A stretch of 64,000 nt of DNA, taken from positions 137,253 to 201,252 of the forward strand of contig CASGEC010000006.1 of the NCBI GenBank assembly GCA_949300365.1. The letters run 5' to 3'. Made by a program: the position numbers and the translations under genes. This DNA is from an uncultured Bacillota bacterium (GTDB taxonomy: Bacteria; Bacillota_I; Bacilli_A; RFN20; CAG-288). Shown piece by piece: positions 47,506 through 48,603 of this stretch. Below the pieces are notes generated by a model. The model was not told the DNA's origin, did no database searches, and saw nothing but the letters and a program-made list of their open reading frames with translations. Within the stretch, counting starts at the first letter, position 1; each line of letters opens with the position of its first letter.

Positions 47506-48603
47506 ATGGGAAAGCTTCTGGACCTTTTCGATGCCATGACGGAGGATCGTGACAAGAAGGTCCTCCTTCAGGCGGTCAACATCACGACCACATTGAACTA
47601 TTCCCTTTTTCGGGAAGAAGGAACAAATGTCTTTGTCCTGGACGGAAAAAGATACGAGATCCCCGACAACGCCACCCTCTATGTCCTGGAGGACCAGGTC
47701 TATGTCAACAACAGGACAGCCTTTCCCGTGTCCGAAAGCGAGGAGACGGACAACACCCCGACGGCAGTCGATCGCTTTCCGACGCTCCTTCTTCCCGAAA
47801 AAGCCCCTTCCGGAACAGGCCTTACCATCCTGAAGGCATGGCAGGCGGAAGAGAAGGATAGGCTTGATAAGCGCATCCCGATCTACATCTATCGCATCCG
47901 GTGCGGCAACCACATCCTCCGGGTCGAGTACTTTCGGCGGGAGAACAAGATGCAAAGGCGTTCAATCGTCAACTACGGCATGATCGAGATCTATGGGCGG
48001 AAGGAGGACGGGGACAGGGAAATCCTCGGCTTTGTCCGCAACACCATCGAACGGGCCACCAAGAGGGTCTACTTCCTGCCTTTCTATGACGGGGACAGTC
48101 TCTTCTTCTTCGGAAAGAGAAGAAAGATAACAAACGACAGGGACAAGCTCGGCGATCCAAAGTATTTCTTCGTCGAAAAAGGAATCCATCCCATCAAAAA
48201 ATACAAAGAGTTGTTTTTCACCTATCTTCGCAAGAGGATTCCCGAAATCGGATCACAGATGGGCTTGAACATGAACAAGTGGGAAATCAAGGTCTCCAAC
48301 TATCGGAGCATTTACGCCAGCAATGCCTACTATCAGAAGATCCTGCGGTTTGATTATCGGAACGCGGCCTACAGGCAAGCCATCATCGATGCCCTTATCG
48401 TCCATGAGCTCTGCCATTGCTATCATCATAACCACGGCAAGGCTTTCTATGCCCTGTGCGAGCGCTATTGGCCGAACTACGCCTATTACGATGCCCTGCT
48501 TGACGCCGGTGTCTTCAACGAAAAATGCCTCTCCCCGGAAGAGAGGGGCATTTATCTGCCTCCGGAGTACAAAAACCTCTGGGATGACGGGAAAAACGGA
48601 TAG
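47506..48603 (+). CDS. DUF45/COG1451 (YgjP-like) HExxH metal-dependent hydrolase with an unassigned roughly 120-aa N-terminus
   Basis: 365 aa. Starts 19 nt after the helicase stop, with TAAGGAG upstream. IIDALIVHELCHCYHHNHGKAFYALCERYWPNY has HELCH at 48403-48417. Upstream YRIRCGNHILRVEYFRR... fits the DUF45 N-terminal strands. Confidence 0.75.
   Translation: MGKLLDLFDAMTEDRDKKVLLQAVNITTTLNYSLFREEGTNVFVLDGKRYEIPDNATLYVLEDQVYVNNRTAFPVSESEETDNTPTAVDRFPTLLLPEKAPSGTGLTILKAWQAEEKDRLDKRIPIYIYRIRCGNHILRVEYFRRENKMQRRSIVNYGMIEIYGRKEDGDREILGFVRNTIERATKRVYFLPFYDGDSLFFFGKRRKITNDRDKLGDPKYFFVEKGIHPIKKYKELFFTYLRKRIPEIGSQMGLNMNKWEIKVSNYRSIYASNAYYQKILRFDYRNAAYRQAIIDALIVHELCHCYHHNHGKAFYALCERYWPNYAYYDALLDAGVFNEKCLSPEERGIYLPPEYKNLWDDGKNG

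Follow-up and report, generated by a model that had tools for sequence, protein, structure and literature searches.

Prometheus (ProA), PDC-S37 and Hhe are single-gene systems, and PMC13700489 describes Prometheus/ProA as an anti-phage defence system made of a single protein with four domains (DUF4011, an SF1 helicase, an MTES_1575 nuclease and DUF3320). A second point of reference is the YgjP-like/DUF45 family (PF01863; COG1451; 'M48 family metallopeptidase' at NCBI), a very large and poorly understood group with members of 220-250 aa. Two further groups come into consideration: the minigluzincins projannalysin and proabylysin (4JIX and 4JIU), soluble minimal M48/M56-like metallopeptidases of only ~105-112 aa, and the SprT/Wss1 (WLM) proteases, small zincins that share the HExxH motif.

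Here, we describe a locus within a window of 64,000 nucleotides (the whole stretch of DNA that was analysed), whose relatives place the source in the genus Candidatus Enterosoma (RF39, Bacilli) among gut MAGs. The locus holds a ProA-like gene and, directly behind it, a long form of DUF45 (hereafter DUF45L):

41685..47486, + strand: ProA-like (Prometheus/PDC-S37) helicase-nuclease, 1933 aa from the ATG at 41685 (Pfam, PADLOC, NCBIfam)
47489..47494, + strand: Shine-Dalgarno sequence AAGGAG, 11 nt before the DUF45L ATG and 2 nt past the helicase stop (sequence reading)
47506..48603, + strand: long-form DUF45 gene (DUF45L), 365 aa (open reading frame and translation)

The main value of the comparison, as it stands, is corrective: the neighbour appears to belong to a known defence family, and DUF45L to be a genus-restricted DUF45 paralogue with an orphan domain. 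What is new here, as judged from sequence, is a genus-restricted architecture built on the common DUF45/YgjP family with its catalytic residues intact.

The upstream helicase-nuclease

The giant upstream protein carries all four ProA domains, namely DUF4011, the SF1 helicase (AAA_11/AAA_12), the MTES_1575 nuclease and DUF3320 (Pfam), and it matched the PADLOC family PDC-S37 at E = 9e-297. Against the NCBIfam model 'anti-phage protein ProA' the alignment ran over model positions 5-1903 of 1903 and reached 1460.7 bits, which is under the equivalog cut-off of 1500; the orthologues of this protein measure 1931-1934 aa. These matches, taken together with the four shared domains, indicate that the giant protein represents no undescribed system, and its sequence points to a place in, or close to, a known defence family. 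When the helicase protein alone was used to search for related loci, the same genus and one weak match were recovered.

ProA-like genes were found to be common among Bacilli; they also occur in the TGA-recoded Mycoplasma-like genomes of that group, where they hold 8-20 in-frame TGA codons. Many of the Bacilli forms are ~1,530-1,600 aa long and do not cover the initial ~350-445 positions of the ProA model, and the NCBIfam equivalog cut-off was exceeded in only 5 of the 399 genomes of a phylum-wide sample.

The DUF45L gene

DUF45L begins 19 nt behind the giant DUF4011 helicase-nuclease and reads in the same direction: the helicase stop codon lies at 47484-47486, and the + strand showed no terminator-like site in the interval. 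DUF45L is a genuine gene subject to purifying selection (dN/dS 0.11 in the comparison with an 80%-identical orthologue), and its relatives form seven homologous clusters of 50-99% identity. The protein matched no family in PADLOC-DB v2 (E <= 0.01) and no model in NCBIfam, while a search of PHROGs gave one weak match of unknown function, located on the catalytic helix.

The membership in the YgjP-like/DUF45 family is carried by the Pfam match to PF01863 (E = 1.2e-18; 68.3 bits, above the gathering cut-off of 26), which extends over aa 233-333 and covers profile positions 108-205 only. The fold is nevertheless complete and comprises the beta-rich half with which members of the family begin, since full-length members of 220-250 aa align from residue ~120 onwards (to ~340) and thereby delimit the DUF45 fold (aa ~119-340) from an add-on of ~118 aa; the C-terminal 220 aa of DUF45L thus match such members end to end. 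The following features were delimited in this part of the protein:

47860..48525, + strand: YgjP-like/DUF45 zincin domain, aa 119-340 (end-to-end alignment with DUF45 proteins of 220-250 aa)
48304..48324, + strand: RSIYASN, aa 267-273, a variant of the RWGSC-type strand motif (alignment column statistics)
48403..48435, + strand: HELCHCYHHNH, with HExxH (H300, E301, H304) and the putative third ligand H310 (alignment)

The zincin domain and its possible chemistry

The earlier reading of an intact HExxH in a DUF45 protein holds: HELCH occupies 48403-48417 and corresponds to residues H300-H304. The wider pattern of the family, HExxH-x5-H-x3-F[YW], is found in DUF45L as well, and none of the 134 aligned relatives (8 long and 126 short forms) departs from it at H300, E301, H304, H310 or F314.

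The second motif calls for a milder wording than the one it had received. RSIYASN does stand at aa 267-273, as the earlier note had it, yet to call the WGSC-like motif 'replaced' overstates the difference. In the RWGSC-type columns the long forms read [FI][FY]A[SC]N and the 126 short relatives [RY][YWF]G[SVC][NC], so that the sole change fixed in the long forms is Gly to Ala. Since Ala also occurs in 11 of these short relatives and a literal WG[ST]C in just 14 of them, the motif of DUF45L appears to be a conservative variant, neither lost nor absent.

A profile of the family, compared with structures in the PDB, matched projannalysin (4JIX) at E = 3e-5 and proabylysin (4JIU) at E = 0.3. The match to 4JIX extends across the strand-helix core, with both HExxH and the NH..F element that follows it, and makes peptidase chemistry plausible for DUF45L; the two minigluzincins differ from it in lacking the N-terminal beta half of DUF45 as well as the orphan domain. 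A Foldseek search with the full-length AF2 model (pLDDT 69, moderate confidence) returned no match at E < 0.1, the minigluzincins included. Taken as a whole, the sequence evidence portrays DUF45L as a predicted cytoplasmic metal-dependent hydrolase, a minigluzincin-like YgjP/DUF45 zincin with a complete HExxH-x5-H site.

Two functional readings bear directly on this domain, and we regard both as minor. By the first, DUF45L would be a nucleotide-directed enzyme that, like YgjP, hydrolyses NTPs or a nucleotide signal and so depletes or clears a nucleotide during defence. YgjP and DUF45L share a Pfam family, and the UTP pyrophosphatase activity that the earlier note had mentioned for E. coli YgjP does appear in the annotation table quoted in PMC12783615. 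This assignment is, however, an annotation-table entry, the nearest relatives of solved structure are, by sequence, peptidases, and the locus was found to hold no cyclase, signal-generating or sensor gene; moreover, nucleotide signals are not reported for ProA-type systems (PMC13700489). We therefore consider a nucleotide substrate improbable.

The second reading, in which the zincin would clear proteins bound covalently or tightly to the nucleic acid on which the helicase-nuclease works, as SprT/Wss1-like proteases do with DNA-protein crosslinks, seems slightly less probable still. It is favoured by a neighbour that acts on nucleic acids, by a weak Pfam match to WLM (PF08325; E = 8e-5, 23.2 bits), by profile matches to Wss1 structures (E = 0.009-0.02) and by the presence of Wss1 among the insignificant Foldseek matches. 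The WLM score nonetheless falls below the gathering cut-off of 26, the Wss1 matches are limited to 22-27 residues around HExxH, and the family to which DUF45L belongs is DUF45, not SprT or WLM. The likeness to these proteases thus amounts to a small zincin with HExxH and weak sub-threshold matches, and neither a DNA-binding domain nor ubiquitin/SUMO-binding parts were detected in DUF45L, whose N-terminal module shows no significant match to an OB, HIN or other fold.

The orphan N-terminal module

The part of DUF45L that precedes the zincin domain falls into two segments:

47506..47721, + strand: orphan N-terminal module, aa 1-72, one helix and a six-strand beta meander (AF2; dN/dS 0.11)
47722..47859, + strand: acidic, poorly conserved linker, aa 73-118, predicted disordered (pLDDT; dN/dS 0.38; indel-rich alignment)

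In the AF2 models (mean pLDDT of 69 for the full-length protein and 64 for aa 1-120 alone) the module is predicted to consist of a helix at aa 3-17 and a beta meander from aa 21 to ~67-70, with pLDDT values of 83-86. The linker falls below a pLDDT of 50 at aa 74-90 in the full-length model and at aa 77-110 in the N-terminal one.

The first ~120 aa had been described as matching nothing recognisable, and every search made here agrees for the ~118 aa in question. Pfam gave nothing at E <= 5, a region-restricted search of the N-terminal 118 aa against 5.8 billion proteins recovered the DUF45L family itself only, and in Foldseek searches of the DUF45L models against PDB and BFVD no E value fell below 0.03, the matches being scattered over HIN/OB, DnaJ and phage entries. 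An OB/HIN-like DNA-binding fold was considered for the module and rejected, the Foldseek matches being insignificant.

The module is constrained despite its absent relatives. Measured against the same 80%-identical orthologue, aa 1-72 gave a dN/dS of 0.11, the linker reached 0.38 and the zincin domain stood at 0.07 (compared with 0.06 in the helicase), and the values of 0.07-0.11 on both domains of DUF45L indicate purifying selection.

Origin and distribution of the long form

When 1.84 billion representative proteins were searched exhaustively with a profile, 3,221 matches were obtained. Among the best 150 of these, only two clusters (at 50% identity) cover the whole length and thus hold the extra ~118 aa that set DUF45L apart from other YgjP-like/DUF45 proteins: its own and P0009 (359 aa). 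The others among these 150 are mostly DUF45 proteins of 200-250 aa, the best of which align to profile positions ~123-341. The long form was present in 5 of the 37 genomes of the genus that were first sampled and in 5 of 401 RF39 genomes, which corresponds to one of 70 genera.

A short DUF45 paralogue of ~230 aa occurs in nearly every genome of the genus; it shares ~30% identity with DUF45L, and the alignment begins at residue ~115-135. The maximum-likelihood tree unites the long forms in one monophyletic group (100/99). The long stem of this group, like the Gly fixed as Ala in the RWGSC-type motif, distinguishes them from the rest of the family, and they lie inside a clade (99/92) that holds the short paralogues of Enterosoma. 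This position points to a duplication that was followed by an N-terminal gain. DUF45L would thus have arisen by duplication and divergence inside the clade to which the housekeeping ~230-aa DUF45 gene of the genus belongs, and it apparently acquired an orphan beta domain of ~70 aa and an acidic linker at its N terminus.

The two paralogues also differ in context, as the long form follows a defence helicase and the housekeeping one is associated with a SpoU methylase. In all eight genomes of the genus examined downstream of it, the short paralogue (225-236 aa) is followed by a gene for a SpoU-family RNA methylase, an adjacency that may point to a function of canonical DUF45 related to RNA or nucleotides. 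In the source genome the short paralogue lies at G000:C2:53776-54612 (L025:3888-4565) with a GT8 glycosyltransferase gene ahead of it; the other copies are those of L014-L020. For one long form (L098) we considered the same housekeeping GT8-DUF45-SpoU context and rejected it, as the downstream gene encodes a lipoprotein and the upstream gene matches GT8 without significance.

How closely DUF45L follows the helicase

Within the sub-clade of the genus that carries both genes, the pairing is regular. DUF45L stands directly behind an orthologous helicase (65-92% identity) in each of the five GTDB species that possess it, and the same arrangement is seen in the metagenome lineages L001-L003 and L100. 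In these relatives the spacing ranges from a DUF45L start that overlaps the helicase end up to a gap of 69 nt, and the two proteins diverge in parallel (92/81/68/65% identity for the helicase against 80/62/49/50% for DUF45L). Three genomes (G511, G514 and G033) lack both genes at the same site, which is bordered by a PHP/HisJ-like gene and a double-HTH regulator. Since other genes occupy the site in these three genomes, the pair can be read as accessory cargo of a variable site; its context is of defence type, both by the neighbour itself and by the TA and Abi genes found near the locus in relatives.

Outside this sub-clade the association dissolves. No DUF45 open reading frame, sought by HMM or motif, was found within 7 kb on either side of other ProA-like loci, neither at 60 loci from Bacilli (HMM cut-off E <= 1e-3) nor at 20 loci from a second phylum (E <= 1). 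DUF45L, absent from 80 of 80 such loci sampled, is no part of the single-gene systems to which its neighbour is related. Clustering of the flanking open reading frames disclosed no conserved alternative partner of ProA-like genes, only lineage-local synteny groups of heterogeneous function, and a literature search for a link between DUF45 and defence gave nothing usable.

Exceptions were met in both directions within the genus as well, and a DUF45 partner does not recur beside the helicase family across lineages. One genome (G012) keeps an orthologous helicase (59% identity) that is followed, 2 nt on, by an unrelated open reading frame of 244 aa in the DUF45L slot. Conversely, of the 11 lineages with a long form, seven have the helicase upstream, one has it truncated and three are without it. 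The truncated copy (L005:1617-4442, 83% identity) comprises helicase residues 1004-1933 only and has lost the Walker A motif, next to an intact DUF45L. As for the three others, a divergent aldo-keto-reductase-like gene stands upstream in L004 and a divergent 439-aa open reading frame in L099, and no helicase precedes the long form of L098 (39% identity, on an AT-rich contig of 30% GC); all three cases are short or end-of-contig fragments, so that a helicase elsewhere in these genomes is possible. DUF45L is evidently able to persist without the helicase.

The 244-aa open reading frame of G012 (L021:10240-10974) has no Pfam or PHROG match, and the slot may be a swappable accessory position. In L005 a gene for a secreted protein of 302 aa takes the place of the 5' half of the helicase, and AbiEi/AbiEii genes follow downstream.

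Such a distribution fits an independent neighbour, i.e. a diverged housekeeping paralogue with a job of its own (e.g., nucleotide or RNA-related hydrolysis, as for the paralogue beside the SpoU methylase) that shares a variable site with the helicase through inherited synteny and is not coupled to it. The 80 ProA-like loci without DUF45, the helicase kept without DUF45L in G012 and the long-form lineages in which the helicase is missing or truncated while the gene and its catalytic residues stay intact all speak for this reading. So does synteny: the whole neighbourhood is syntenic, and as every pairing maps to the same chromosomal locus, within a single sub-clade of the genus, vertical inheritance alone can explain the adjacency. 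Nor is the tight spacing informative, because genes of unrelated kinds also stand close behind other ProA-like genes in these densely packed genomes (GH31, FtsK-like, CoA-disulfide reductase, M28 peptidase, AbiH or JetA genes follow within 1-27 nt); adjacency in genomes this compact is weak evidence of partnership. Against an independent neighbour, on the other hand, stand the retention of the pair across ~50% divergence of the DUF45L protein with very short or overlapping gaps, the joint absence of both genes from the site, the restriction of the long form to the genus that has this helicase clade, and the fragmentary contigs on which the three helicase-less cases lie.

The designation of DUF45L as a 'partner protein' is consequently not well supported: the loci without DUF45, the helicase of G012 and the long forms of L004, L099 and L098 weigh against it, and the co-occurrence with the helicase family on which the earlier note had let its proposal depend is largely missing (0/60 and 0/20), being confined to one sub-clade. 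The pairing is local and not obligatory, and Prometheus-type systems do not in general include DUF45L; a functional coupling to the helicase may exist, but only as a lineage-specific one.

A tentative role for the pair

The reading that we tentatively place first, at a probability of roughly 45%, is that DUF45L serves as a lineage-specific accessory of the ProA-like gene, with an N-terminal adaptor and a zincin protease acting on ProA or on a substrate-bound protein. In these species the gene would probably be co-transcribed with the helicase-nuclease, and its product would be an accessory that is dispensable and confined to this lineage. The N-terminal domain may serve as a targeting or adaptor module, and the zincin may be a peptidase that processes or degrades a target protein. 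The most plausible targets would be ProA, whose self-toxicity might be limited in this way or which might be licensed by it, and a protein on the nucleic-acid substrate of ProA. We consider an independent neighbour almost as likely as this accessory role. If the coupling were real, the locus would offer a first case in which a Prometheus-type helicase-nuclease is tuned by a zincin accessory, as well as a handle on DUF45 proteins in defence contexts.

A stronger version, in which the Enterosoma Prometheus is a true two-component system, appears unlikely. It would have the N-terminal beta domain dock on the ProA-like protein, and the zincin license or restrain ProA by proteolysis or destroy a phage inhibitor of it; if true, it would amount to a protease-gated helicase-nuclease defence variant, which has not been described so far.

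Other genes at the variable site

In the three genomes that lack the pair (L123:4600-7700 for G511, L124:8050-12950 for G514, and L125 for G033) the site holds genes for a Macro-domain protein, a VWA-like protein of 211 aa and a Cof-type HAD hydrolase, and that of G514 additionally contains an ATPase_2/AAA_14/DUF4143 gene. Two further genes lie close to the pair in the window:

40697..41500, + strand: open reading frame of 267 aa without a family, between the PHP gene and the helicase
48680..48898, - strand: gene for a 72-aa HTH_11 protein (E = 1.4e-6), convergent on DUF45L

The first corresponds to a gene call of 250 aa in L001 and is absent from L002 and G012, where the PHP gene directly abuts the helicase. 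The HTH_11 gene is conserved in L001, L002, L004 and G036, and also in G010, which is without the helicase pair; its presence there suggests that it belongs to a flanking regulator-lipoprotein module and not to the pair.
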